Shown in pieces: positions 1-11,149 of a stretch of 11,149 nt of DNA. Under the pieces are notes generated by a model. It saw nothing but the letters and a program-made list of their open reading frames with translations, ran no database searches and was not told the DNA's origin. The stretch's first letter is position 1, and every line of letters starts with the position of its first letter. Made by a program: the position numbers and the translations under genes. The DNA is taken from positions 1 through 11,149 of the IMG/VR virus record IMGVR_UViG_2923302340_000010, one strand, 5' to 3'. The DNA is from a virus. Its lineage: Duplodnaviria > Heunggongvirae > Uroviricota > Caudoviricetes.

Positions 1-285
1 TCACACTCCAACGCGAAGACAACGAACTTTCCTGAATGCCTTACCATTGGGCTGATGTAATCCCATTCCGGCATGTGCCCGGCTGATGGTTTCGCGCATC
101 TCCCCGAAATTATCCTGCTTTGCTGGTGGGCGTGCTGCCTTGTGGATACATTCCGCGCGACGTTTTGCCGCCTGTTCCCGTGCCTTGTCATCATTCGCCA
201 GCATGATGACCTCAGCCCACCGCGCCGCCGCTCTCCGGTACAGACCACGCGCTTCCAGTGCTTCCGCTTTGCTGTCGTGAATCAT
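1..285 (-). CDS. PerC-family transcriptional regulator-like small protein (94 aa)
   Basis: Complete ORF: ATG at 285..283, TGA at 3..1. The motif EARGLYRRAAARW matches my recollection of prophage PerC/Pch-type regulators. The ATG overlaps the stop of the upstream ProQ-like gene (ATGA), suggesting translational coupling. Confidence 0.5.
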   Translation of the reverse strand: MIHDSKAEALEARGLYRRAAARWAEVIMLANDDKAREQAAKRRAECIHKAARPPAKQDNFGEMRETISRAHAGMGLHQPNGKAFRKVRCLRVGV

Positions 286-812
286 GCGCCTGTTTTCTCC
301 TTTGCTGCCCGGCGCTGACGTTTGCGCTTCTCATTCAGCGCCATCAGCCGCGTTTCTGCGTCCTGTTGTTCCTGTGGTGTCACCTCGCCGCACGGCTGGC
401 CTTTCAGGTCGTAACGCGCCCCACCAGCAACCAGGGCGCGGTAATAGCGCGGAGACTGCGCATAAGATGCCAGCGTCGCACGTAATGCCCCTGGCCCAAA
501 TGCCAGCCCCCTGACGGCGAGATCCTGCATCAGGTCGTCGAATATCCCCACCTTAAGCGGCTTCGGTGCTTCCCGGCTGAATAAGTCAGGCCACAACTCA
601 GTGAGGCGGTTAACGCGCCTGCGGTTTTTGCGCTGGCGTTTGGTCATATGCCGCCACGGTGTCGCCCCTGTGGGCTTCTGCTGCGCGTTCTGATTACCGG
701 GCATCACTTTATATGCCGATGTGGTTTTATCCTGCTGTTGCGTCTCCTGTACCATTTTTGTGGCATACCGTAATTTCTGTTGATGGTCAGCTTTTCCATG
801 TGTACTTTTCAT
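282..812 (-). CDS. ProQ/FinO-domain RNA-binding protein (176 aa)
   Basis: The segment PLKVGIFDDLMQDLAVRG...GALRATLASYAQSPRYYRALVAGGARYDLKGQPCGEV resembles the ProQ N-terminal/FinO domain, with a basic K/R-rich C-terminus. ATG at 812 has no obvious SD; internal Met codons are possible alternative starts. Confidence 0.7.
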   Translation of the reverse strand: MKSTHGKADHQQKLRYATKMVQETQQQDKTTSAYKVMPGNQNAQQKPTGATPWRHMTKRQRKNRRRVNRLTELWPDLFSREAPKPLKVGIFDDLMQDLAVRGLAFGPGALRATLASYAQSPRYYRALVAGGARYDLKGQPCGEVTPQEQQDAETRLMALNEKRKRQRRAAKEKTGA

Positions 813-891
813 CGATATTATCCGTATTATCGTCGTTCCTTTTGATGGCTTATTTCTATAGAAATTTCTTTATTGCTTATTACCCAGATAA

Positions 892-1218
892 TTAACTGAC
901 TATTAGTGCTTTAATACTCAGGTACGCAGAAAGAATAACACCAATAAAAGAAGGGTACAGCAGAATCCCAAACAAAAACTTCATGTACTTATGTTTTCCT
1001 ATCACTTCGTTAATAACAGATATTATACTCAACATACATAATGCAATACTTATAGTTGCAATAAATGCAATAGTAAGCAAGATGAAATATCTTACACCTG
1101 TTTGAGAAGATAAATTTGCAATTATACCTATCATAACGAGACTCTGTATAATCCCGAAAGACAAAGCACCAGAAGACTTTTCCACTATTTCACTAAATTT
1201 CTTCACAAAGTAAATCAT
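892..1218 (-). CDS. Small hydrophobic membrane protein, hypothetical (about 108 aa, predicted multi-pass)
   Basis: Strongly AT-rich ORF. ATG at 1218..1216 is preceded by AAGGTGA at 5-nt spacing (the track start at 1227 is GTG). The protein is dominated by I/L/F/V stretches consistent with about three transmembrane helices. TAA at 892..894. Confidence 0.55.
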   Translation of the reverse strand: MIYFVKKFSEIVEKSSGALSFGIIQSLVMIGIIANLSSQTGVRYFILLTIAFIATISIALCMLSIISVINEVIGKHKYMKFLFGILLYPSFIGVILSAYLSIKALIVS

Positions 1219-1295
1219 ATATATCACCTTTATATAACGCTATGCTAAGGTTTATTTATACGATATCCCCAAATGGTATTCCATCACCGTACGGA

Positions 1296-1514
1296 TCACT
1301 CTGCTGGCCTTTTTTGCCGCCCGGCCGCACCGTTCGCGCACTGATTACGCTGTCTGCGATAACCAGACCAGCCACGTTTCGCCGTTCCGTCATCTGCCTG
1401 GCTGCGCGGAAGGGGAACTGCCATACTCGCCATTGCCATTGGTGTTCCCTTGCTGGTGGTTTTTGAGTGCAGATCAGCCACCTGCTGCCCGTAAGCGGAT
1501 ATTTGTACCGTCAT
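1296..1514 (-). CDS. Hypothetical small protein (72 aa)
   Basis: ATG at 1514, TGA at 1296..1298; the ATG overlaps the stop region of the upstream 66-aa ORF (ATGA at 1511..1514). No recognisable motif; a plus-strand ORF overlaps it. Confidence 0.35.
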   Translation of the reverse strand: MTVQISAYGQQVADLHSKTTSKGTPMAMASMAVPLPRSQADDGTAKRGWSGYRRQRNQCANGAAGRQKRPAE

Positions 1515-1711
1515 GCTGTTTGCTCTCCGGTTTTAACGTTGATGATTGTCACCTGTTCAGCTTCGGCAATCTCCCGTTCTGTCAGCGTGGCAAAGTTTGC
1601 CGCTGCCGTTGTCATGAATGCGCTTATCAGTTCGGGATGTACTTTCGCGTATCCTTCCCCGGCGTTGCGGTCGATAATTTTTATCGCCCCCCTCAGCCTG
1701 TGTTCTGTCAA
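1511..1711 (-). CDS. Hypothetical small protein (66 aa; start uncertain)
   Basis: The track ORF begins with TTG at 1711 and has no clear SD; an internal ATG at 1615 is an alternative. The sequence looks protein-like (AIKIIDRNAGEGYAKVHPELISAF) and lies just downstream of the iteron cluster. Confidence 0.3.
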   Translation of the reverse strand: MTEHRLRGAIKIIDRNAGEGYAKVHPELISAFMTTAAANFATLTEREIAEAEQVTIINVKTGEQTA

Positions 1712-1799
1712 ATCAAGGGCGTGAGATTGTGTTTTTTGTGTGTTTCGTTGTCACAGCCTTTACCTCACAGCAATAAAATAAAATTTTTGCATTTTAACC

Positions 1800-2030
1800 C
1801 TTCACCTGTTCACCTTTTTCCGTTTCTCCTTTTAATTCATTGTGTTAAGGGGTGAACAGTTTCACAAAAACTATTCACCAACTGTTCACCACTGTTCACC
1901 CTTAAAGCTCAACAAATAATCAAAAAGGTGAACAGTGAATAGTTTGATGAACAGTTCATGAATAACTGTTCACCCTATAACCAACTGATATAGAACACAT
2001 TTATTACAGGGTGAACAGTGATGAACAGTT
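1800..2030. repeat. Iteron cluster of TGTTCACC/GGTGAACA octamers (P4 ori/crr-type replication origin region)
   Basis: Direct copies of TGTTCACC at 1807, 1883, 1893 and 1967; inverted copies GGTGAACA at 1851, 1927 and 2010; degenerate copies (ATTCACC, ATGAACAG) at 1873, 1947 and 2021. AT-rich context, starting immediately after the stop of the primase C-terminal ORF. Confidence 0.75.
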
Positions 2031-2041
2031 ATTCCATAAGT

Positions 2042-2386
2042 TTAATTTTTGCCATCGTCATTTGTGACCGATGCACATGAGGGCATCCAGTCTTCTGAAT
2101 CCTCTGTCAGTATCACGTTTGAACGCAAGCCATGCTTCGTTTTCCGTTTCATATACTCCCTGCCGTATTCCGCCATTGCCCCTGGCATATCCTTACCGAA
2201 GCGTGTCAGTGTTACGGGCTTACCGAATCCGTGTGCCCTCATATACGCCAGATAGGCGTGATAGAGATACCTGCGCGGGCTGAACGGAATAATTTCAGCA
2301 TTACCCACTAACAGGCCATCGCACATTACCGACGACATGAGATAGCCGCAGAAGTCCACCAGCGAATCGCCCTCGCGTTTTATCAC
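2042..2386 (-). CDS. C-terminal fragment of the P4 alpha-like primase/helicase (putative origin-binding domain), split from the upstream ORF by an in-frame TAG
   Basis: Same reading frame as 2438..3841. The 17 codons between the TAG at 2438..2440 and the GTG at 2386 are open (read-through gives ...LLTRFSD*DEAKRLLYEQQKSEEALVIKREGDS...). The pattern YLYHAYLAYMRAHGFGKPVTLTRFGKDM resembles the conserved C-terminal region of P4-family primases. Weak RBS before the GTG. Confidence 0.6.
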   Translation of the reverse strand: MIKREGDSLVDFCGYLMSSVMCDGLLVGNAEIIPFSPRRYLYHAYLAYMRAHGFGKPVTLTRFGKDMPGAMAEYGREYMKRKTKHGLRSNVILTEDSEDWMPSCASVTNDDGKN

Positions 2387-2437
2387 CAGGGCTTCTTCTG
2401 ATTTCTGCTGCTCATATAGCAGGCGTTTAGCTTCGTC

Positions 2438-3841
2438 CTAGTCAGAAAAGCGTGTAAGCAGGTGGCGAATCACTACCGCCAGCTCTCCTTCTATTTTTTC
2501 AGCCAGCATAGGGTCACGTTCGTTCTCCGGTACAACTTCCGAAAAATTGAATATTACCCGACGACGTGATATCCCACCGCTGCGGTCACTGAATGACATG
2601 GCGTTATTGTTCACCGCCAGCACGACCGCCTGAATGCGTGTTGAGTAGGGGGCTTTATGTTTCGGGTCGATTGCCACCTTATCACCGCCTGTAATGGCCT
2701 TAATCCCTGCACCATCACCAGCGTAACGGGTCATATCCGGCATGATAATCAGCGAAAAGCCAACCACTAACGCACGTTCCCTGGCATCTTCCAGCGCCTT
2801 CATGCTTGCCGATACCGTGTTGGCCTTACCCGCCAGCATAGTGCAAATCTCCGCCATTACGCTTTTACCGCTTCCACCCGGCCCCGTTACCTCAAGAAAT
2901 AACTGCCAGTCGTACCGATTCGCCAGCACCATGAATAACGCCGCCAGTACGCGATCTGCCTTGCGGTCATTCTCAGCCACCGAACGGCGCAACCACTTCC
3001 AGAAATTCGGCGCATGTGTTGCCAGCGTTTCCCCCTCTGCTGGTGGGCTGAAAGGTAATTCACTGGCAATTAACAACCAGTCGTTTTTGTTATGCTCCCG
3101 AAAATTACCAGTTCTGGTATCAAATACCCCGTTACTGAATCCAATCAGGTTACGGGCTGTATTCCCCATTACGGGCAAACTTAACTTCATGGTATCGACC
3201 GCCGATTTGATGGCGTTCTGCGAATAGCTGATTTCCGCATCAATAAAAATCTGCGCCATAGTCCGCTGTAACTCTTTATCCTGTACCGGCTCCCATACAA
3301 CACCGTTGTAGTGGTGAACGGTGTCAGAATCCGCATTGATTGCCAGTTCACCGCCATAATGTGCCAGGAGAACTTCGCCGCGCTGGCTGGCTCCCATCTG
3401 ATTTAGTGCTGGCCTGGGTAGGTCAATATTTTTTGTGGCTAATTTCATCGCTGAAACTTCCCCACTCTCTGCCTGTTCGCGGATCCGTTGCAGGTAGTCG
3501 CGCCAGTTTTCCGGCTCCCGGTCGGTGATACCTTTGTATAATTTCGCGTCCTGTACGCCAGCCAGTGCCAGTTTTTCAGCGATAGCATTGATCTGGATTG
3601 GTTCGATCTCCCCCGCGAGATAGACACGCGCAAAGCGGCGTTCATCGTCGACAATGCGGATATTCGCCAGGTCTGCCAGTTGCTTTGGCCCCAGGTAAAC
3701 AGGTGGTACGTTATCGCCGTGTTTTCGTCCTTCGCTTTCAATCCAGTGTTGAGCATGGGCGTAAGCATCCGTCCCGGCAAAAATGATTACCTCAGTGAAT
3801 TTATCCTTCGGCTGATATTTCAAACTCGGTGCGTTTTTCAC
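2438..3841 (-). CDS. P4 alpha-like primase/helicase (D5/P4-family P-loop NTPase), truncated by an in-frame TAG at 2438..2440
   Basis: 467-aa ORF with Walker A motif GPGGSGKS. GTG start at 3841 is preceded by GGGAGGT and overlaps the stop of the upstream gene (GTGA). Together with 2042..2386 it would make a roughly 600-aa protein. Confidence 0.85.
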   Translation of the reverse strand: MKNAPSLKYQPKDKFTEVIIFAGTDAYAHAQHWIESEGRKHGDNVPPVYLGPKQLADLANIRIVDDERRFARVYLAGEIEPIQINAIAEKLALAGVQDAKLYKGITDREPENWRDYLQRIREQAESGEVSAMKLATKNIDLPRPALNQMGASQRGEVLLAHYGGELAINADSDTVHHYNGVVWEPVQDKELQRTMAQIFIDAEISYSQNAIKSAVDTMKLSLPVMGNTARNLIGFSNGVFDTRTGNFREHNKNDWLLIASELPFSPPAEGETLATHAPNFWKWLRRSVAENDRKADRVLAALFMVLANRYDWQLFLEVTGPGGSGKSVMAEICTMLAGKANTVSASMKALEDARERALVVGFSLIIMPDMTRYAGDGAGIKAITGGDKVAIDPKHKAPYSTRIQAVVLAVNNNAMSFSDRSGGISRRRVIFNFSEVVPENERDPMLAEKIEGELAVVIRHLLTRFSD

Positions 3842-4128
3842 TTCTTACCTCCCGCAACCAACATTGCCCGGATTTTTTTAATATTCGTGGCTGCACGTCT
3901 TGCCACTGCCTGTTGTTTGTTTTCAACCAGAATAAAATCACGCTCAAACTGACGGCGCGGCATTACGCAGTCATATTCGTAAGCCTCACGGCGGTAGGTG
4001 ATATTGCCTGGCGTAACGTGACGAATAACCACTCGTCCCCCACGTCTGGTGTCGCGGTAAATATCGCCGTGTCTGATTTCAGGCCGAGCGGGGCCGCTGG
4101 CAGTAAAGCCAGAATTTTTCTTTTTCAT
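3838..4128 (-). CDS. Hypothetical basic protein (96 aa), coupled to the primase start
   Basis: ATG at 4128, TGA at 3838..3840 overlapping the primase GTG. Arg/Lys-rich; no motif recognised. Confidence 0.55.
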   Translation of the reverse strand: MKKKNSGFTASGPARPEIRHGDIYRDTRRGGRVVIRHVTPGNITYRREAYEYDCVMPRRQFERDFILVENKQQAVARRAATNIKKIRAMLVAGGKK

Positions 4129-4132
4129 GGTT

Positions 4133-4333
4133 TTATTTTCCTGTCAGCAGTTCCGGTTTTATTTCCGCACGAATACAAAGTTCAGAAAAAAATTCAGGAG
4201 AACCAACAATCTCATTACTTTTCAGTCGGCATTGTGATTTCACTTTCCCTTTATCCAGGTAAACCAGTACGCGTCCGGTGAAATCATCTGGCACACTCAG
4301 GGTAATTGTCATTGTTGCTTGCTGATTATCCAT
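4133..4333 (-). CDS. Hypothetical protein (66 aa)
   Basis: ATG at 4333 preceded by a GGGGGTGA SD; overlaps the stop of the upstream gene by 8 nt; TAA at 4133..4135. Confidence 0.5.
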   Translation of the reverse strand: MDNQQATMTITLSVPDDFTGRVLVYLDKGKVKSQCRLKSNEIVGSPEFFSELCIRAEIKPELLTGK

Positions 4334-4691
4334 GATTCACCCCCTGAATAACCTGATAACCGCAACTGGTCAGCAATTCGATAAATTCCGGCAGTGTGCC
4401 GAAACAGCAATCATCACGCATACGTTCGCGGGATACCTCAACGCCGTTTTCGTAGTGACTCACCATGCGTCCAGTAAAATGCAGATCATCATCGTGATGG
4501 CACGTTGACGGCTTAATCAGTCGCGCACGTTCTGCCAGTTCCAGCAATGCTTCAACGCTTCCGGCAATTGCACCATCCGGCAGGTGATAATTACTTACCA
4601 CGCGTCCATTCTCCACGTTGACCAGTAGCTGCCCGGAAAATATCTCGTCAAACTGAATGCTGTTAAGGTCAGAAATTGACAGGTTATGCAT
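4326..4691 (-). CDS. Hypothetical protein (121 aa)
   Basis: ATG at 4691 preceded by CAGGAGGTG at ideal spacing (the track's longer start at 4709 is less likely); 8-nt overlap (ATGCATAA) with the upstream gene's stop. Confidence 0.55.
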   Translation of the reverse strand: MHNLSISDLNSIQFDEIFSGQLLVNVENGRVVSNYHLPDGAIAGSVEALLELAERARLIKPSTCHHDDDLHFTGRMVSHYENGVEVSRERMRDDCCFGTLPEFIELLTSCGYQVIQGVNHG

Positions 4692-4908
4692 GGTGCACCT
4701 CCTGCACATCAGCCATGATAATTTTTCCGGCCTTATCCAGTGCCTGATCGGCTTTTAGCTGCACAAATGCTAAATAATGGGAGATGCATTCTGATTCTCT
4801 GGCTGCGTGTTTATGCGCCACACCAGCGATAGCAGAAATCTCAATAAGTGAATCCATCAGCGTTTTGATAGCGTCTACCGCTGCATCAGGCCATGTTGCA
4901 TTACACAT
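4684..4908 (-). CDS. Hypothetical protein (74 aa)
   Basis: ATG at 4908 preceded by CAGGAGGTGG; overlaps the stop of the upstream gene (ATGTGTAA). Confidence 0.5.
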   Translation of the reverse strand: MCNATWPDAAVDAIKTLMDSLIEISAIAGVAHKHAARESECISHYLAFVQLKADQALDKAGKIIMADVQEVHHA

Positions 4909-5266
4909 GTTCCACCTCCTGGCGAATGCGGGCAGCGAATACCATCACGCAGCCATCAGGAGATTGCTGGCGTGCTTCCTGTTCGCTGGTGGCCTCGATG
5001 TGAATTACACGCGGTTGTGCTGTGCTCAGGGCGATAAAACGCCATATAAAATTGTTTTCGCATTTCTGAATAAACAGCGTGTTTTCTTCGCGCCCTTTCC
5101 ATGTTGCCGAGATATAGCCCATATCATTGAGCATCTTGCAGGCATCCACCAGCGTATCAGCGGCTACGTGTACAGTGTTTTTACCGTCAGCCATGCAATC
5201 ACGGTGCACCGCCAGGAAGGTGTATATAAATTTAGGGTGAGTTTGGGTATGCTGTATTCCAGCCAT
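4901..5266 (-). CDS. Hypothetical protein (121 aa), first gene of the operon leading into the primase
   Basis: Internal ATG at 5266..5264 of the 384-aa track ORF, preceded by GAGGT at about 8 nt. Upstream of it the frame yields low-complexity Ser/Cys-rich sequence and overlaps the plus-strand regulator gene, so the long ORF is an artefact. Confidence 0.55.
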   Translation of the reverse strand: MAGIQHTQTHPKFIYTFLAVHRDCMADGKNTVHVAADTLVDACKMLNDMGYISATWKGREENTLFIQKCENNFIWRFIALSTAQPRVIHIEATSEQEARQQSPDGCVMVFAARIRQEVEHV

Positions 5267-5353
5267 AATCGTTACCTCATTTAACGGTTTGGTTAGAAGC
5301 CCGGTTAGTGTTCGCGCACTGCCGGGTTTCGTCGTTTTTATGAATCGCTCATT

Positions 5354-5455
5354 GTGAGATACATAGCGACCTCCATGTGAGATACACATTATATTGTGGT
5401 GATATACATTGCAAGTGTTTTTATATCTCACTTTTGTGTATAGTGATATACACAT
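5354..5455. promoter_or_regulatory. Phased operator-like repeat array GTGA(G/T)ATACA(CA)T in the divergent intergenic region
   Basis: Direct copies at 5354..5364, 5377..5389, 5399..5409 and 5443..5455, plus an inverted copy ATATCTCAC at 5423..5431, spaced about 22-23 bp apart (two helical turns). A possible extended -10 (TGTGTATAGT, about 5435..5444) faces the plus-strand gene. Confidence 0.5.
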
Positions 5456-5474
5456 AACAAATTGGTGATTAACT

Positions 5475-5777
5475 ATGTCTGTATACAAAAATGCAAAATC
5501 GCAAATGACAACGATCAGGGTTCCCCACGATGTTATGGAGGGCATGGAATCCGTAAAACTGGACGGCGAAAGCAACGCCGGATTCATAGTAACCGCCATG
5601 CGCGGTGAGATCGCTCGCCGCCAGGCAGAAGGAAGAGGAGAAAATCCCCTGGTTTCTTCGCTCGATGCACTGGCGCAGGTGGAAAAAATCGGTGTCAAAG
5701 CTGCCGAGGAGATCGGGCAACTCGTCACCGTCGCGCGTGAAGAACTCCAGCGCCGCAAGGCCAAAGAACAGGAGTAG
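5475..5777 (+). CDS. Small DNA-binding regulator, putative ribbon-helix-helix (CopG/Arc-like) repressor (100 aa)
   Basis: ATG at 5475 with GGTGA 6 nt upstream; TAG at 5775..5777. TTIRVPHDV (beta-strand), then a helix, a NAG turn and a second helix (FIVTAMRGEIARR) fit the RHH pattern; charged helical C-terminus. It is the only convincing plus-strand gene in the element and is divergent from the small-gene operon. Confidence 0.5.
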   Translation: MSVYKNAKSQMTTIRVPHDVMEGMESVKLDGESNAGFIVTAMRGEIARRQAEGRGENPLVSSLDALAQVEKIGVKAAEEIGQLVTVAREELQRRKAKEQE

Positions 5778-6047
5778 TTGATCAGCACCGGGCGACCAGA
5801 AAAAATCGCATCAGTCGCACCACCAGCAAAATTTTTTGCTTTCCGGACAGCGTGACCAACGACATTTTGCAGCAAAATATTCTGCATTTCTGGCGTGCTG
5901 TAGTAACGGTGATCAGCGCCTTCACTCTGTGCGACCACAACGCTATAATCTGCCTCGTAGACAGTAAGCAATATGGCGCAGTAGGCTATTCGTTCACAAA
6001 GGCGCTCCGGCAACGGGGCGCTTTCTCTTTTTGTAACGGTCAGAGCG

Positions 6048-6896
6048 TTACACATGGCTGTTTTCCTCCATGCGGCGGGCTAACCAACGCTGCGAAAGAC
6101 GAATTAATTCAGCTTTCCGCTGGTGGTAGTCCTGGCCTAACTCAATCAGCGTGATATTGCTCTGCTCAAGGTAAGAAAGGTGCTCAAGCTGCAACGTGCT
6201 CATGTGGTCGCGTGGTTCGCCTGTGATGCCGTTCGCCAGTGCCCACTGTTTTGCAGTCATGCCACCCAGCACGATACGCGCCAGCATATTGGCTTCCGTG
6301 GTGTAGTGGTGCTGGAACGTGCTTTTACCCAGTTCAGCCCGGTACGCCTCCAGCGCGGCGCACATCGGCTTAAAGTAGCTGGCAACGGTGATACGGGCTT
6401 TCAGTTCCCGGCGTAACGCTGCGGAACGCACTGGCGCCACCTTGTGTAGATCCTCCTCGCATTTGATGAAATACTGGCGAACGGCGCGGCCTTGTTCGGT
6501 GCGTTCGACCATCGCCAGTTCTTTCGCCATGTTCGTGGAGATCAAATAGTCTTCACTGCGGCGATCACCGCCGCGCTTTGTTGTCCAATCAGAATCAAAC
6601 TGTTCAATATTTACACTTTGGTTCCCCCGTTTCGGGGAATCAAAGTACAAATTTTCTACAACTTCAAAATCCACGCCATTTTTAAATCCGTACTCATCAA
6701 TACGTCCTTTAATCCAGGTAGTGAAATCACGGCCTACCCCGAGCGCCTTATACAACGCTCTGGCGCTAACAATATTGGTTTCACGCCCGCCAATAACGCC
6801 GGAAATAACCGGGATAATTTCGCCAAAATTTTGCAGATTCTGGTTTTCAGGCCGAACGAAGCCCTGCCCCTGTACGGGCGTTTTTGGAAATTTCAT
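6048..6896 (-). CDS. Phage antirepressor-like protein with N-terminal AntA/Bro-N-type domain (282 aa)
   Basis: ATG at 6896 preceded by AGGAG; TAA at 6048..6050. ALYKALGVGRDFTTWIKGRIDEYGF and NMAKELAMVERTEQGRAVRQYFIKCEE match the conserved blocks of phage Ant/Bro-N antirepressor N-domains as I recall them. Confidence 0.7.
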   Translation of the reverse strand: MKFPKTPVQGQGFVRPENQNLQNFGEIIPVISGVIGGRETNIVSARALYKALGVGRDFTTWIKGRIDEYGFKNGVDFEVVENLYFDSPKRGNQSVNIEQFDSDWTTKRGGDRRSEDYLISTNMAKELAMVERTEQGRAVRQYFIKCEEDLHKVAPVRSAALRRELKARITVASYFKPMCAALEAYRAELGKSTFQHHYTTEANMLARIVLGGMTAKQWALANGITGEPRDHMSTLQLEHLSYLEQSNITLIELGQDYHQRKAELIRLSQRWLARRMEENSHV

Positions 6897-6973
6897 AAAA
6901 ACTCCTGCTATCGAATTAAGTTACTTTTATTTGCTGGTGGATAGCTGGGGGCAATAGCCCCGTAGCCATTTAA

Positions 6974-7171
6974 TCAGGTAGCTGTTCCGCGTGATTCTGC
7001 AATACGCTGATTAATCCACTCGTCAATTTCACTCTCAACGAAAGCAATCGCTCGCGAGCCAATTTTAACTGATGCAGGAAATTTACCTTGCCCCATAAGG
7101 CGATAAATCCATGCCTTGCTATATCCAGTTCTACGCTGAACTTCTGTTAAACGAATAAGCGTATTTGACAT
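6974..7171 (-). CDS. alpA: AlpA-family phage regulatory protein (MerR-like HTH; excisionase/transcriptional activator type, 65 aa)
   Basis: LTEVQRRTGYSKAWIYRLMGQGKFP...ESEIDEWINQR matches the AlpA/Vis family pattern (HTH followed by EIDEW). ATG at 7171 preceded by GAGGT; TGA at 6974..6976. Confidence 0.85.
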   Translation of the reverse strand: MSNTLIRLTEVQRRTGYSKAWIYRLMGQGKFPASVKIGSRAIAFVESEIDEWINQRIAESRGTAT

Positions 7172-7240
7172 ATATTTACCTCATAACGTCTACTCAATTT
7201 GACGAGGTAATCATGGCACAGAAATAACGAATATTTTCAT

Positions 7241-7385
7241 ACCCTCAGGCCTAATGGTTACCGGAAGGAAATTAACCCTAAGGGTGATGGTAATCGGGAG
7301 GAAATCTACCCTAAGGGTGATGGTAAAATTGACGGGGAAGATAAAAAAATACCCTCAGGGTAACAGTAAATCACCCTCAGGGTAT
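7241..7385. promoter_or_regulatory. Array of palindromic ACCCT(A/C)AGGGT sites upstream of alpA, including a 31-bp tandem duplication
   Basis: Sites at 7275..7285, 7308..7318, 7351..7361 and 7373..7383, with a half-site at 7241..7249. Nearly identical 31-bp units at 7263..7293 and 7296..7326 (GGA(A/G)GGAAAT(T/C)(A/T)ACCCTAAGGGTGATGGTAA). TACCCTcAGGGTA at 7350..7362 is a perfect 13-bp palindrome. Confidence 0.5.
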
Positions 7386-7398
7386 GCGGTATGGTGCG

Positions 7399-8196
7399 TT
7401 AATCCGGCTTTGCGTTCTTTTGGCTGTTGTCTCGGTTAATAGGGCAGGCAGTCCTCTCTATGAGCGTTGCAAGAGCATTACTTGCCCCCCACTGCTTAAG
7501 CTCCCTGGTTATCGCTTCTTGATTTCCCCTGGTGGCAAAATCATTTTCTGGATCGTAATTGGCCCACTCTCTGTTTCTAATCTCAATAGCCTTAGCTAAT
7601 GGGTCTTTATCCCAGTATTTATATAAGTGTATCGGGCGCTCTTGCTCTAACTGCTCTATCCTTGCCCTTAACTCTGCGTTTTCTTTTTCCAGCATTGCGA
7701 TTTGGGATAATAAATCATCCTCTGTACGCAACTCTTTCTTTTCAATATCGCGTCCTTGTGCCTCGTCATTTTCAGAAGAGTTAGCGCCTTCCAGCTTCGT
7801 TAACGCGTCAAGGACATCGGGAAAAATTGCGAAAATTTCACCCCTTATAAATCCAATGTTCTCAAATTCGGGATCTTCCCAATAACCGGACACCAGAAAA
7901 CCATTTTCATCCCTCTCACCAGGTAAACAACCACGTTTCCGAACCGCATTCAGATTTCTATAAAGAACATCATAATCAAATTCATCCCGATACGGGTTAC
8001 AAAAAGATTCCAACAGCTTAAATTCATTTACTGTGTACAGGCGGATATGTTCTCCGTTTATTCTCCTGAGTATCCAAGTTATGACATCTGAAACATCATA
8101 ATCATCACCAGCGACCTTAAGCACGACCTCAAGAAATTCACGTAAAGAAATAAAATCTTTTTTGTATTCGTTTAATTCGGCATGAATATCAATCAT
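7399..8196 (-). CDS. Hypothetical acidic protein (about 265 aa) with central coiled-coil; AT-rich orphan gene between int and alpA
   Basis: ATG at 8196 preceded by GAGGTG (the track start at 8202 is GTG); TAA at 7399..7401. Markedly lower GC than its neighbours. Coiled-coil-like segment LLSQIAMLEKENAELRARIEQLEQE. No catalytic motif recognised. Confidence 0.7.
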   Translation of the reverse strand: MIDIHAELNEYKKDFISLREFLEVVLKVAGDDYDVSDVITWILRRINGEHIRLYTVNEFKLLESFCNPYRDEFDYDVLYRNLNAVRKRGCLPGERDENGFLVSGYWEDPEFENIGFIRGEIFAIFPDVLDALTKLEGANSSENDEAQGRDIEKKELRTEDDLLSQIAMLEKENAELRARIEQLEQERPIHLYKYWDKDPLAKAIEIRNREWANYDPENDFATRGNQEAITRELKQWGASNALATLIERTACPINRDNSQKNAKPD

Positions 8197-8324
8197 ACGC
8201 ACACCTCAGCGTCCTCTACTGTAGTGGCTGTACCAGTCCGTCGAGGTGTACGGATTTTCGGGAGCGACCCTAGACACAGCCTTTTCTTTCGTCGCTCAAA
8301 GTCTACTACTGTATACTCAACCAG

Positions 8325-9539
8325 TCACCCGCATTTTCCGAACTCACCATGCACCACATTTCCGCCATGCTCGAGCGAATCCATATAGTCGGCATACCAC
8401 TGGAGCATCTCCCGGCGACCATCCAGATATTGCGCATGGTTGTATGTGCCACGAATTGAGTTTTTATCGACGTGTGCAAGCTGTGTCTCTATCCACGCGG
8501 TGTTATAGCCCTGCTCATGCAAAATGGTGCTCATGGTGTGCCGGAATCCATGACCAGTAACCTTTCCGTTATAGCCGATGCGTTTAAATACTTGGTTTAT
8601 GCTAGCCTCGCTCATTGTTTTCCTTGGATCATTACGGCCGGGAAACATAAGCGGATAATTGCCAGTTAATTCTTTAATCTGCCCAATAAGCGAAAGAGCC
8701 TGCTTAGACAAAGGCACCACATGAGGGCGACGCATTTTCATCCGTGAAGCAGGTATCTCCCAGATAGCCTTGTTGAGATCGATTTCATCCCATAATGCAC
8801 CGCGCAGTTCGCCAGTCCGCAAACCGGTGATAATCAGTAGACGAGCCGCCATAACAACCAATGCACTTCCTGAGTAACTGGACAATGCCTTGAAAAAATC
8901 AGGTAATTCTTTGGCTGTGAGGAAAGGATAATGATTAGATTCATGACCTTGCATCGCGCTGGTGAGATCCGGTGCAGGGTTATACTCAGCACGTCCAGTG
9001 ACAATTGCATAGCGGAAAACCTCCCCGCATCGCTGCCTCACTTTTTTGGCTTTTTCGGTAGCACCGCGCCCCTCGATGCGCCGCAGCACATTCAGCAGTT
9101 CAAGTGGTTTGATTTCGGCGATTGGTTTTTTGCCAATGTAAGGGAACACATCTTTGTTGAAGGCTTCGAGGATGTCTGAAGCATAACCAGCAGACCATTT
9201 TTTTAATTTGCTGCTGTGCCACTCAAGGGCAATATCTTTGAAGGTGTTGTTTAACTGCGTTTCCCGGGCAATCTTTTCCTCTCGTTTCGCTTCCATCGGA
9301 TCGATACCCCCAGCGATACCCCTTTTAGCTTCTTCACGTTTTGCACGAGCATCAGCCAAGGTAACTTCAGGATACACACCTAGTGCTAACAGCTTCTCTT
9401 TACCAGCTACACGATACTTGAAGCGCCAATATTTTCCTCCACTAGGTTTTACCAAGAGATACAGACCGCCACCATCAGCCAGCTTGTAAGCCTTCTCTTT
9501 TGGCTTGGCAGTGTCTATTTGACGGGCATTGAGTTTCAC
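8325..9539 (-). CDS. int: P4-type tyrosine site-specific integrase (404 aa)
   Basis: N-terminal arm-binding-type region (LNARQIDTAKPKEK...GGLYLLVKPSGGKYWRFKYR), catalytic R in GLRTGELRG, H-x-x-R in HGFRHT, and a C-terminal Tyr in RGTYNH. GTG start at 9539 preceded by GGAGGT. Lies directly beside the tRNA 3' end. Confidence 0.95.
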   Translation of the reverse strand: MKLNARQIDTAKPKEKAYKLADGGGLYLLVKPSGGKYWRFKYRVAGKEKLLALGVYPEVTLADARAKREEAKRGIAGGIDPMEAKREEKIARETQLNNTFKDIALEWHSSKLKKWSAGYASDILEAFNKDVFPYIGKKPIAEIKPLELLNVLRRIEGRGATEKAKKVRQRCGEVFRYAIVTGRAEYNPAPDLTSAMQGHESNHYPFLTAKELPDFFKALSSYSGSALVVMAARLLIITGLRTGELRGALWDEIDLNKAIWEIPASRMKMRRPHVVPLSKQALSLIGQIKELTGNYPLMFPGRNDPRKTMSEASINQVFKRIGYNGKVTGHGFRHTMSTILHEQGYNTAWIETQLAHVDKNSIRGTYNHAQYLDGRREMLQWYADYMDSLEHGGNVVHGEFGKCG

Positions 9540-9614
9540 TTGGGGGTACCTCCACTAAACCGAACAGCAAATACCCCCAAAAGTACCCCCAATTGACTGT
9601 AGATTTTGGGGTAC
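9540..9614. promoter_or_regulatory. GTACCCCCAA repeat set between int and the tRNA (candidate Int arm-binding sites / int promoter-operator within attL)
   Basis: Inverted copy at 9540..9549 (abutting the int start codon), direct copies at 9572..9580 and 9583..9592, inverted copy at 9606..9614. Confidence 0.45.
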
Positions 9615-9705
9615 TTAAGTAGACGTCAAAAGACTAAAAGGGGCATTAATATACTGATTATAAGAGGTTTTTAAATACTTTAGTAGACTTGGGGAGACGT
9701 TAGAA

Positions 9706-9781
9706 TGGTGCCGATAATAGGAGTCGAACCTACGACCTTCGCATTACGAATGCGCTGCTCTACCAACTGAGCTATATCGGC
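9706..9781 (-). tRNA. thrW: tRNA-Thr (anticodon CGU)
   Basis: The reverse complement reads GCCGATATAGCTCAGTTGGTAGAGCAGCGCATTCGTAATGCGAAGGTCGTAGGTTCGACTCCTATTATCGGCACCA: 76 nt, cloverleaf-compatible, anticodon loop TTCGTAA, encoded CCA. Position downstream of proA matches the E. coli proA-thrW arrangement. Confidence 0.95.
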
Positions 9782-9826
9782 CCTGAAAGGACATGTTCAC
9801 GAACGTGAATCACGGTGGACAAGGTT

Positions 9827-9889
9827 AAAACTAACCGGGCGATGCGTCAATGGCCTTGTGAATCAAATGGCTACTTTTGCATCACCCGG
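9827..9889 (-). terminator. Possible proA transcription terminator (long-loop hairpin followed by a U-rich tract)
   Basis: Inverted repeat 9835..9845 / 9879..9889 (11 bp, one G-U position), followed on the minus strand by UUAGUUUU. The loop is long, so this is weakly supported. Confidence 0.3.
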
Positions 9890-9895
9890 TTTTAT

Positions 9896-11149
9896 TTACG
9901 CACGAATGGTGTAATCACCAATGCCGATCCACTTGTAAGTGGTCAGCGCTTCCAGCCCCATTGGGCCACGCGCGTGGAGTTTTTGTGTGCTTACCGCCAC
10001 TTCCGCGCCCAGTCCAAACTGGCCGCCGTCGGTAAAACGCGTAGAGGCGTTAACGTAAACAGAGGACGAATCCACTTCGTTAACAAAACGCTGGGCGTTG
10101 CGCATATCGCGGGTCAGGATCGCATCGGAGTGTTGTGTGCCGTGTTCACGAATATGGGCGATGGCATCGTCAAGATCGCTGACGATTTTAACGTTCAAAT
10201 CTAATGACAGAAACTCATCGTCATACTCTTCGGCTTTAACAGCCACCACCTTCGCGGGGCCTGCCTGCAACTGCGCCAGCGCAGCTACATCTGCGTGTAA
10301 TGTCACGCTGCTTTCCGCCATTTGCTTGCTTAATGCGGGCAGGAAGCTATCGGCGATGTTTTTATTTACCAGCAACGTTTCTACCGTATTACATGTGCTC
10401 GGACGCTGAGTTTTTGCGTTAACGATTACTTTCATGGCTTCAGCGATCTCTGCACTTTCATCAACGTAAATATGGCATACGCCTATACCGCCTGTGATCA
10501 CCGGGATTGTCGACTGTTCGCGGCACAGCTTATGCAGGCCAGCGCCACCACGCGGGATCAGCATGTCGATGTATTTATCCATACGCAGCATTTCACTTAC
10601 CAGCGCACGGTCAGGATTATCAATCGCCTGCACGGCACCCGCCGGTAAGCTGCAGGATTTCAGGGCGTCCTGAATCACCGCCACCGTTGCAGCGTTAGTG
10701 CGACAGGTTTCTTTGCCACCACGCAGGATCACTGCGTTACCGGTTTTCAGGCACAGGGAAGCAACATCAACCGTCACGTTCGGGCGCGCTTCATAAATCA
10801 CGCCAATCACCCCCAGCGGTACGCGACGACGCTCCAGACGCAGACCGCTGTCCAGTACGCCACCATCAATCACCTGCCCCACCGGATCGGCGAGGTTACA
10901 CACCTGACGCACATCATCGGCAATGCCTTTCAGCCGTGCGGGCGTCAGAGCCAGACGGTCAAGCATCGCTTCGCTAAGGCCATTGGCACGCGCGTCAGCA
11001 ACATCCTGCGCGTTAGCGTTGAGGATGATTTTGCTTTGTGCTTCCAGTTCATCGGCGATTTTTTCCAGCACGCGATTTTTTTCGCGGCTGGAGAGTTGCG
11101 CTAATTTATACGAGGCTTGCTTCGCGGCAATGCCCATTTGTTCCAGCAT
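9896..11149 (-). CDS. proA: Gamma-glutamyl phosphate reductase (glutamate-5-semialdehyde dehydrogenase)
   Basis: Full 417-aa ORF: ATG at the window end ([19 protein letters not shown]...), TAA at 9896..9898; aldehyde-dehydrogenase-like throughout; lies beside the tRNA-Thr gene as in enterobacterial chromosomes. Confidence 0.97.

Follow-up and report, generated by a model that had tools for sequence, protein, structure and literature searches.

Conserved palindromes upstream of alpA in an E. coli genomic island are candidate operators for the protein of an adjacent orphan gene

Positions 1 to 11,149 of virus record IMGVR_UViG_2923302340_000010 (11,149 nt, hereafter the window) are an E. coli genomic island with the layout of a Gram-negative phage-inducible chromosomal island (PICI) and P4-like replication parts. 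Every island gene lies on the minus strand, in the order int, orphan gene, palindrome array, alpA, AntA-like gene, Icd-like gene, primase-helicase gene, iterons and ProQ/FinO-like gene. Our subject is the 227-bp intergenic region (7172–7398) between the stop codon of the orphan gene (7399) and the ATG of alpA (7171), where a set of related palindromes may serve as operators for the orphan protein. The region and its flanking genes comprise:

7399–8196, minus strand: orphan gene, 265 aa from the ATG at 8196, candidate binder of the array
7373–7383: distal palindrome D1, ACCCTCAGGGT, beginning 13 nt past the orphan stop codon
7350–7362: distal palindrome D2, TACCCTCAGGGTA, a perfect 13-bp palindrome with core 7351–7361, 22 bp from D1
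7343–7386, minus strand: terminator-like RNA hairpin in which D1 pairs with D2, followed by U7 (T-tract 7343–7349)
7308–7318: proximal palindrome P2, ACCCTAAGGGT, within repeat unit 7290–7322
7275–7285: proximal palindrome P1, ACCCTAAGGGT, within repeat unit 7257–7289, its center 109 nt before the alpA ATG
7254–7326: 33-bp tandem repeat, 2.2 copies, 87% matches (Tandem Repeats Finder), one palindrome per unit
7258–7241, minus strand: site0, imperfect 18-bp palindrome ACCATTAGGCCTGAGGGT, the array's half-sites 8 nt apart
7218–7210, minus strand: predicted extended −10 of the alpA promoter, TGcCATGAT (TGCCATGAT), with no −35 match
7176–7210, minus strand: alpA leader hairpin, UUACCUCGU / AUGAGGUAA, which buries the GAGG ribosome-binding site
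6974–7171, minus strand: alpA, 65 aa, the regulated gene (PF05930, E = 2.4e-19), downstream of int in the same orientation

The four perfect ACCCTnAGGGT sites all fall inside 109 bp (7275–7383), and none occurs elsewhere in the window. With one mismatch allowed, the window holds five matches against 0.20 expected, a number reached by none of 200 shuffles. A preliminary description of this DNA had reported the four sites, the perfect 13-bp palindrome (D2) and a repetitive plus-strand peptide, RKLTLRVMV, and all of these stand; the peptide is encoded, as RKLTLRVMV/RKSTLRVMV, by an open reading frame (ORF) at 7254–7439 that reads MVTGRKLTLRVMVIGRKSTLRVMV... and is regarded as a by-product of the repeat. 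The tandem duplication, given there as 31 bp, has a real period of 33 bp, and a direct count between units 7257–7289 and 7290–7322 gives five mismatches in 33. The sites do lie upstream of alpA but do not fill the interval from the orphan stop codon, as had been stated, since the promoter-proximal 69 nt (7172–7240) carry none. Site0 is a fifth, related element, one end of which is the position (7241) at which that description had begun the array. Centers of successive perfect sites are 22, 43 and 33 bp apart, approximately whole helical turns.

Comparison with related loci argues that the sites themselves are maintained. The intergenic region is found in 147 of 5,426 complete E. coli genomes; the related loci compared with the window carry L-numbers, among them L007 (the PICI EcCIMP1) and L141–L146 (from E. 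coli genomes). Within E. coli, the 33-bp unit is present once (L003), twice (the window and L001), three times (L002) or four times (L004), giving three to six perfect palindromes per locus, and the last site lies 109 nt before the alpA ATG whatever the repeat count. This variable-number tandem repeat grows in steps of about three helical turns, and the promoter-proximal site stays put. Among distant relatives (E. coli, Salmonella, Citrobacter, Yersinia and IMG/VR contigs), the DNA between sites diverges freely; L005, L128–L136, L150 and L166 retain the cores and the spacings of 21–23 and 43–44 bp despite diverged flanks. The D1–D2 spacing is 21–23 bp in L005, L128, L131 and L150, the distance from P1 to the alpA ATG is 108–109 nt in nearly all relatives, and D1 stands at about −175 from the alpA ATG in relatives with the one-copy architecture.

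Site0 shows the same constancy. Its columns are conserved in a 15-locus alignment, and L132 (ACCCTGAGGCCTCAGGGT) and L150 (CCATTAGGCCTAATGG) have it as a perfect palindrome. Because both halves have changed in these loci (ACCCTGAGG/CCTCAGGGT in L132, CCATTAGG/CCTAATGG in L150) yet the palindrome is perfect, dyad symmetry has been maintained. No perfect motif occurs elsewhere in about 185 kb of related elements. Judged by sequence comparison, selection acts on the sites, and the DNA upstream of alpA is their only target. The marks of an operator array are present: over-represented and clustered dyads, conservation at a fixed position, and co-occurrence with a candidate regulator gene.

The motif tracks one protein family. 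All loci recovered via orphan homologs share the synteny int, orphan, array, alpA, and 19 of 19 IMG/VR matches to the three-site DNA pattern sit between an orphan homolog and alpA. We searched IMG/VR through the C-terminal domain of the orphan protein, which gave 46 distinct loci, and scored the degenerate consensus AC[CT][CA]TnA[GT][GA]GT in the 253 nt directly after the gene (11.6 kb in total). These stretches contain 107 sites, against 1 in the remaining 214 kb, with at least one consensus site in 42 of the 46 loci. Six alpA loci without a gene for this domain (L007/EcCIMP1, L141, L142, L143, L145 and L146) have 0 sites. The preliminary description had looked to related elements for recurrence of the motif; it is indeed kept in orphan-family loci, but is absent from alpA elements lacking that gene.

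Other proteins of the island vary without affecting this association. The AlpA-like protein of L137 is 25% identical to that of the window and the one of L168 is of the same divergent type; both loci have a typical orphan C-terminal domain and keep ACCGT/ACCCT palindromes, L168 with three perfect sites. The array also persists with a third AlpA type (L220–L234). Int identity among array-bearing loci runs from 66% to 99%, and short orphan-family proteins without the N-domain (L166, 153 aa; L168, 158 aa) still accompany sites. Because the motif is kept with divergent AlpA, variable Int and a missing N-domain, its common denominator, at the level of sequence, is the zipper plus C-terminal domain and not AlpA, Int or the N-domain. 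L141, with a different coiled-coil protein in the orphan slot, has different palindromes (ATACCGCAATTGCGGTAT). Sites beside distant C-terminal-domain subfamilies have drifted to ACTAT half-sites (ACTATnATAGT), and hybrid ACCCTnATAGT sites occur too.

The orphan protein consists of a variable acidic N-domain, a leucine zipper at residues 159–186 and a conserved C-terminal domain at about residues 187–256. The last of these (nt 7429–7638, about 70 aa) is helical in an AlphaFold2 model of the protein and follows the pattern ERPILL..YRDDDPLYLAIEIRNREWANYDPENDRATRGNQ.AI..EL...G......A.AIE.VACPI.R. N-domain identity is 36–82% among E. coli, Salmonella and Citrobacter relatives and 25–33% for L137 and L139. 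The orphan proteins of L005 and L135 are 44% identical overall, with nearly identical C-terminal domains, intergenic DNA and AlpA. The family is small, since clustering at 50% identity gives 47 groups in a set of 1.84 billion proteins; its conserved domain is always C-terminal, and some members are zipper and C-terminal domain only. Searches of Pfam, PHROG, NCBIfam and PADLOC gave no match beyond coiled-coil noise, a PDB profile search returned coiled coils only, with no DNA-binding fold recognized, and the literature searched holds no description of the gene family or the motif.

The alpA promoter appears to lack a −35 element. A simple consensus scan finds no −35/−10 promoter on the alpA strand. 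The 15-locus alignment shows a constant order: P1, site0, 25–26 nt, and then TG-N-[C/A]AT[G/C/T]AT. Twelve of the 15 loci share this last element (L210 and L212 have deviating sequences there, and L195 is without the TG), and the 25–26 nt before it are conserved in length but not in sequence in the 14 loci that align there. We take the element to be an extended −10 without a −35, with a predicted alpA start site near 7203. A start there places the site centers at about −46 (site0), −77, −110, −153 and −175, with site0 spanning about −38 to −55.

From what is observed (the sites, their conservation, copy-number variation and position, their occurrence exclusively beside genes of the C-terminal-domain family, and the hairpin energies described below), we infer binding, a dimer geometry, the promoter, a sign of regulation and a sensor role. 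We lean, by a modest margin over even, to a model in which the palindromes are operators for the orphan protein and gate an alpA promoter without a −35. The leucine-zipper coiled coil would make the protein a dimer, and the two C-terminal domains of the dimer would read the 5-bp half-sites (T)ACCCT and AGGGT(A). At spacings of about two, three and four helical turns, several dimers would line up on approximately one face of the DNA, from about −38 to −180. So arranged, the array would control transcription of alpA, whose product is the master activator of excision and replication of the island, and the variable N-domain would be the likely input module, for instance for a helper-phage protein. 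Sites upstream of a −35-less promoter, at a fixed distance from its −10, are the usual layout of activator-dependent promoters. Because all sites here lie upstream of such a promoter at fixed spacing to the −10, we lean to conditional activation of alpA, which we rate an even call; repression or a roadblock is somewhat less probable but a serious contender.

Several observations weigh against operators read by the orphan protein. The promoter and start site are predictions only. The orphan C-terminal domain is approximately neutral (pI 6.8), the L131 domain departs in the TRGNQ loop although its motif is unchanged, and half-sites both 1 nt and 7–8 nt apart would demand a flexible dimer. Four of the 46 C-terminal-domain loci have no consensus site. 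Being neighbors, the gene and the sites could be inherited together as a cassette and so look functionally linked. In distant subfamilies the half-site changes along with the AlpA type and probably also the host, which makes these cases non-discriminating. Finally, EcCIMP1, lacking an orphan-family gene, has one AGGGTAGCTCTACCCT about 178 nt upstream of alpA. This element has the array's hexamers in outward orientation and may have arisen by chance or be bound by a factor common to both elements.

A host transcription factor or a helper-phage regulator could instead bind the palindromes, with the orphan gene merely linked to them; this is unlikely, although it survives better than the other alternatives. 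Compact 11-bp palindromes suit host helix-turn-helix (HTH) dimers such as MqsA at ACCT-N3-AGGT, and the half-site change in AT-rich metagenomic relatives could follow a change of host. Helper phages also induce alpA through a factor, under study in PMC6092414 and still listed as unknown in PMC11773190, that acts even without AlpA. Such a factor should also be used by alpA promoters of the same species that lack an orphan-family gene, yet these have no sites, and the motif occurs only directly after the C-terminal-domain gene in the 107-to-1 proportion given above. None of 50,697 phage records matched the intergenic region in a BLAST search.

A slightly smaller chance attaches to AlpA itself, which would bind the palindromes to stimulate its own expression. 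Activation of the alpA promoter region by AlpA has been published for the related PICIs EcCICFT073 and EcCIMP1 (PMC6092414, PMC11773190), the array is located upstream of alpA, and EcCIMP1 has one AGGGTAG-CT-CTACCCT element there. The comparative pattern runs the other way. A nearly identical AlpA recognition helix (RRTGYSKAWIYRL) is found in the six array-less loci L007, L141, L142, L143, L145 and L146, and the array persists beside the 25%-identical AlpA of L137, its type in L168 and the third type; the motif therefore does not follow AlpA type or appear wherever that AlpA occurs. The AlpA family comprises small winged-helix, excisionase-like proteins, and the site of P. aeruginosa AlpA, GGGACGN5GGTA (PMC7969949), is no compact palindrome and is missing from 7172–7398. 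Int was also considered as binder and rejected: EcCIMP1 and the window are 97% identical in Int (74% in AlpA), EcCIMP1 has no array, and Int varies widely among loci that do. The preliminary description had proposed operators for a dimeric regulator controlling alpA, with AlpA and Int among the candidate binders. Comparative evidence speaks for the operators, in that the palindromes are kept at a fixed distance and none lies elsewhere, and disfavors both of these proteins.

The distal pair carries a feature that had escaped earlier remark: it can form a terminator-like hairpin followed by T7. On the minus-strand RNA, D1 and D2 pair at −23.9 kcal/mol (z = −7.1), the stem starts 13 nt past the orphan stop codon, and UUUUUUUAU follows. 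A stable, GC-rich stem with a U-tract directly after it, downstream of a stop codon, is the usual form of an intrinsic terminator. On the int/orphan transcript, the pair with its U7 would insulate alpA from upstream read-through. Relatives retain strong inter-site stems, made perfect in L005, L128, L131, L166 and L168 by complementarity between the free central bases of neighboring sites. The U/T-rich tract after the pair is present in the window and L005, partly in L131, and absent in L128, L132, L150 and L168. Because the tract is missing in several relatives, we accept termination as an added role and not as the whole explanation; that the pair also terminates int/orphan read-through in E. 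coli lineages is a balanced proposition.

The alpA leader would offer a second layer of insulation against read-through. Its hairpin, of 7–9 bp, is conserved in 13 loci, with no compensatory changes or covariation support among them. The 5′ arm abuts the predicted −10, with base 7210 common to both, and therefore only read-through transcripts would contain both arms. This resembles the fold-back insulation of IS10-type elements.

Could such RNA structures account for the palindromes entirely, with a terminator and hairpins insulating alpA and no protein reading the DNA? The energy of the distal pair, its U7 and the complementary central bases in relatives fit this idea, as does the whole intergenic RNA, which folds better than shuffles (z = −3.7). 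We nevertheless consider it improbable. A stem needs complementarity between sites only, not that each site be palindromic, the proximal sites and site0 have no U-tract, and four relatives have none after the distal pair. P1 and site0 keep a constant distance from the −10, and this, together with helical phasing, points to function at the DNA level. Least probable by far is an array of replication-origin iterons, a centromere-like partition site or a packaging site, which a variable-copy repeat beside a putative binder gene would recall from plasmid centromeres; we rejected it on the P4-type origin already present (TGTTCACC iterons), the lack of an adjacent ParA-like or terminase gene, and a position, measured from the alpA start, that every relative keeps.

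The operator model for the orphan protein has partial precedents. In phage P4, the late promoter PLL upstream of vis, an AlpA homolog, is activated by P2 Ogr or P4 Delta at a TGT-N12-ACA dyad near −55. Both systems place a dyad upstream of a promoter driving a satellite alpA-family gene (here site0, an 18-bp dyad upstream of where the −35 would lie), and the window also has P4-type origin iterons. PLL responds to the helper, and the same is proposed for the alpA promoter here. The window differs in its ACCCT half-sites, its multi-site array with a 33-bp variable-number repeat, and the lack of an encoded Ogr/Delta zinc-finger protein, the candidate binder being an unrelated coiled-coil protein.

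Phased multi-operator arrays are familiar from lambda OR/OL and from the ACCT-N3-AGGT palindromes of MqsA. Like these, the array consists of short dimer palindromes, compact 11-bp dyads in several copies at integral helical turns. It departs from them in the sequence of its half-sites, in the variable copy number of its tandem 33-bp unit, in combining half-site spacings of 1 and 7–8 nt, and in having two operators that also form a terminator stem. Stl of the Staphylococcus aureus pathogenicity islands is, like the orphan protein as proposed, a satellite regulator with a conserved DNA-side module, a variable partner-side module and a single target region. The stl gene is divergent from its target, with a recognizable N-terminal HTH and operators that overlap promoters. 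The orphan gene is co-directional with alpA, its conserved part is C-terminal and its sites all lie upstream of about −38; the window thus does not show the Stl-type layout of divergent gene and promoter-overlapping operators.

The P. aeruginosa AlpA antiterminator (PMC7969949, PMC9371919) shares the AlpA name and has a predicted winged-helix DNA-binding motif (PMC7969949), with an intrinsic terminator close to the regulated gene. Its element GGGACGN5GGTA lies between −35 and −10 with the terminator downstream of the promoter, whereas the window hairpin lies upstream of the predicted alpA promoter. At up to two mismatches the element has no match in 7172–7398, and window-wide matches are at chance level; we rejected this arrangement for the locus accordingly.

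The closest known systems are PICIs in which AlpA is the master activator (PMC6092414, PMC11773190). For EcCICFT073 and EcCIMP1, a fragment upstream of alpA confers helper-phage induction and AlpA autoactivation, and induction and packaging by helper phages have been shown for relatives of this island (PMC6092414, PMC11773190). The published alpA promoters of the two have no cis element defined (PMC6092414, PMC11773190), and a survey of Gram-negative PICIs describes an integration zone of Int and AlpA with no gene or operator between them (PMC10111431). As in EcCICFT073 and EcCIMP1, int and then alpA follow in the same orientation beside a tRNA gene, EcCIMP1 at the same thrW site; unlike EcCIMP1, which has neither a gene between int and alpA nor a palindrome array, the window carries both.

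For the question of how helper phages switch on Gram-negative PICIs, the locus supplies a conserved cis element and a candidate trans factor with a modular input domain, so that satellite induction becomes testable with a 227-bp fragment and one 265-aa protein. More tentatively, the orphan family could be the helper-phage sensor of a subset of these islands, with a swappable N-domain, an undescribed C-terminal DNA-binding fold and a zipper dimer on the array that switches on or releases the alpA promoter; we hold this as a speculative proposal, less probable than operator function itself. The locus also offers a case in which putative operators would serve additionally as the stem of a terminator.

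What lies between int and alpA varies from island to island. The occupant of this slot belongs to the orphan family in the window and is a DUF6387 protein in L142, L143 and L145; L141 has a further coiled-coil protein, accompanied by ATACCGCAATTGCGGTAT palindromes, and L146 a 251-aa protein with CCCAAAT-type repeats. In EcCIMP1 the slot holds no gene, and its int–alpA spacer has no orphan-gene remnants. The interval may thus be a swap site for regulatory cassettes, and if the sensor proposal is true it would be a plug-in position for alternative sensor-plus-operator cassettes, as the other proteins and other repeats of L141 and L146 suggest.

The remainder of the island has these principal features:

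9706–9781: tRNA-Thr(CGU), the integration site, with proA beyond
8325–9539, minus strand: tyrosine integrase (PF13356, PF22022, PF00589), adjoining the tRNA gene and reading inward
8213–8280, minus strand: Rfam int-alpA RNA motif RF02996, between int and the orphan gene (45.5 bits, gathering score 35.8)
2438–3841, minus strand: D5_N/DUF5906 primase-helicase
1807–2017: seven TGTTCACC iterons in both orientations, downstream of the primase-helicase gene

We take TGTTCACC to be the iteron of the phage P4 origin, and the cluster at 1807–2017 is probably the island ori. One extra copy lies inside the primase gene at 2608–2615; the cluster and this copy compare with 0.38 expected. The int-alpA RNA motif has the same position in L132, L133, L141, L142, L166 and L168, and EcCIMP1 has no match at the gathering score; the U-tract that ends the Rfam consensus is not present in the window copy. 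P4-type immunity RNAs (Rfam C4, isrK) lie near Icd/Ash genes at 16600–16827 in L007, 672–897 in L142 and 6010–6211 in L166, with c4-a1b1 matches additionally in L142 and L166; the window has no Rfam match to a P4-type immunity RNA. A 384-aa ORF at 4901–6055 (minus strand) is probably over-called: only its final 50 aa or so resemble Icd-like cell-division inhibitors, and in related records this part is annotated with small YlcI/YnfO-family genes on the plus strand. A weak SymR-like Rfam match at 5261–5333 (plus strand) falls below the gathering score.

The core of each palindrome, CCTNAGG, is the recognition sequence of Bsu36I/Eco81I-type restriction enzymes, a match we put aside as coincidence. 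A type II restriction-modification pair lies beyond the island in L001, and no link between it and the motif was found. Pairs and arrays of ACCCTnAGGGT are abundant among the matches listed (L008–L087) in metagenome-assembled genomes of Chloroflexota/Anaerolineae, Roizmanbacteria and some Bacteroidota. These arrays, which among the same matches reach 16 copies in one 8-kb stretch of Candidatus Leptovillus, are presumably an unrelated dispersed or tandem repeat family.

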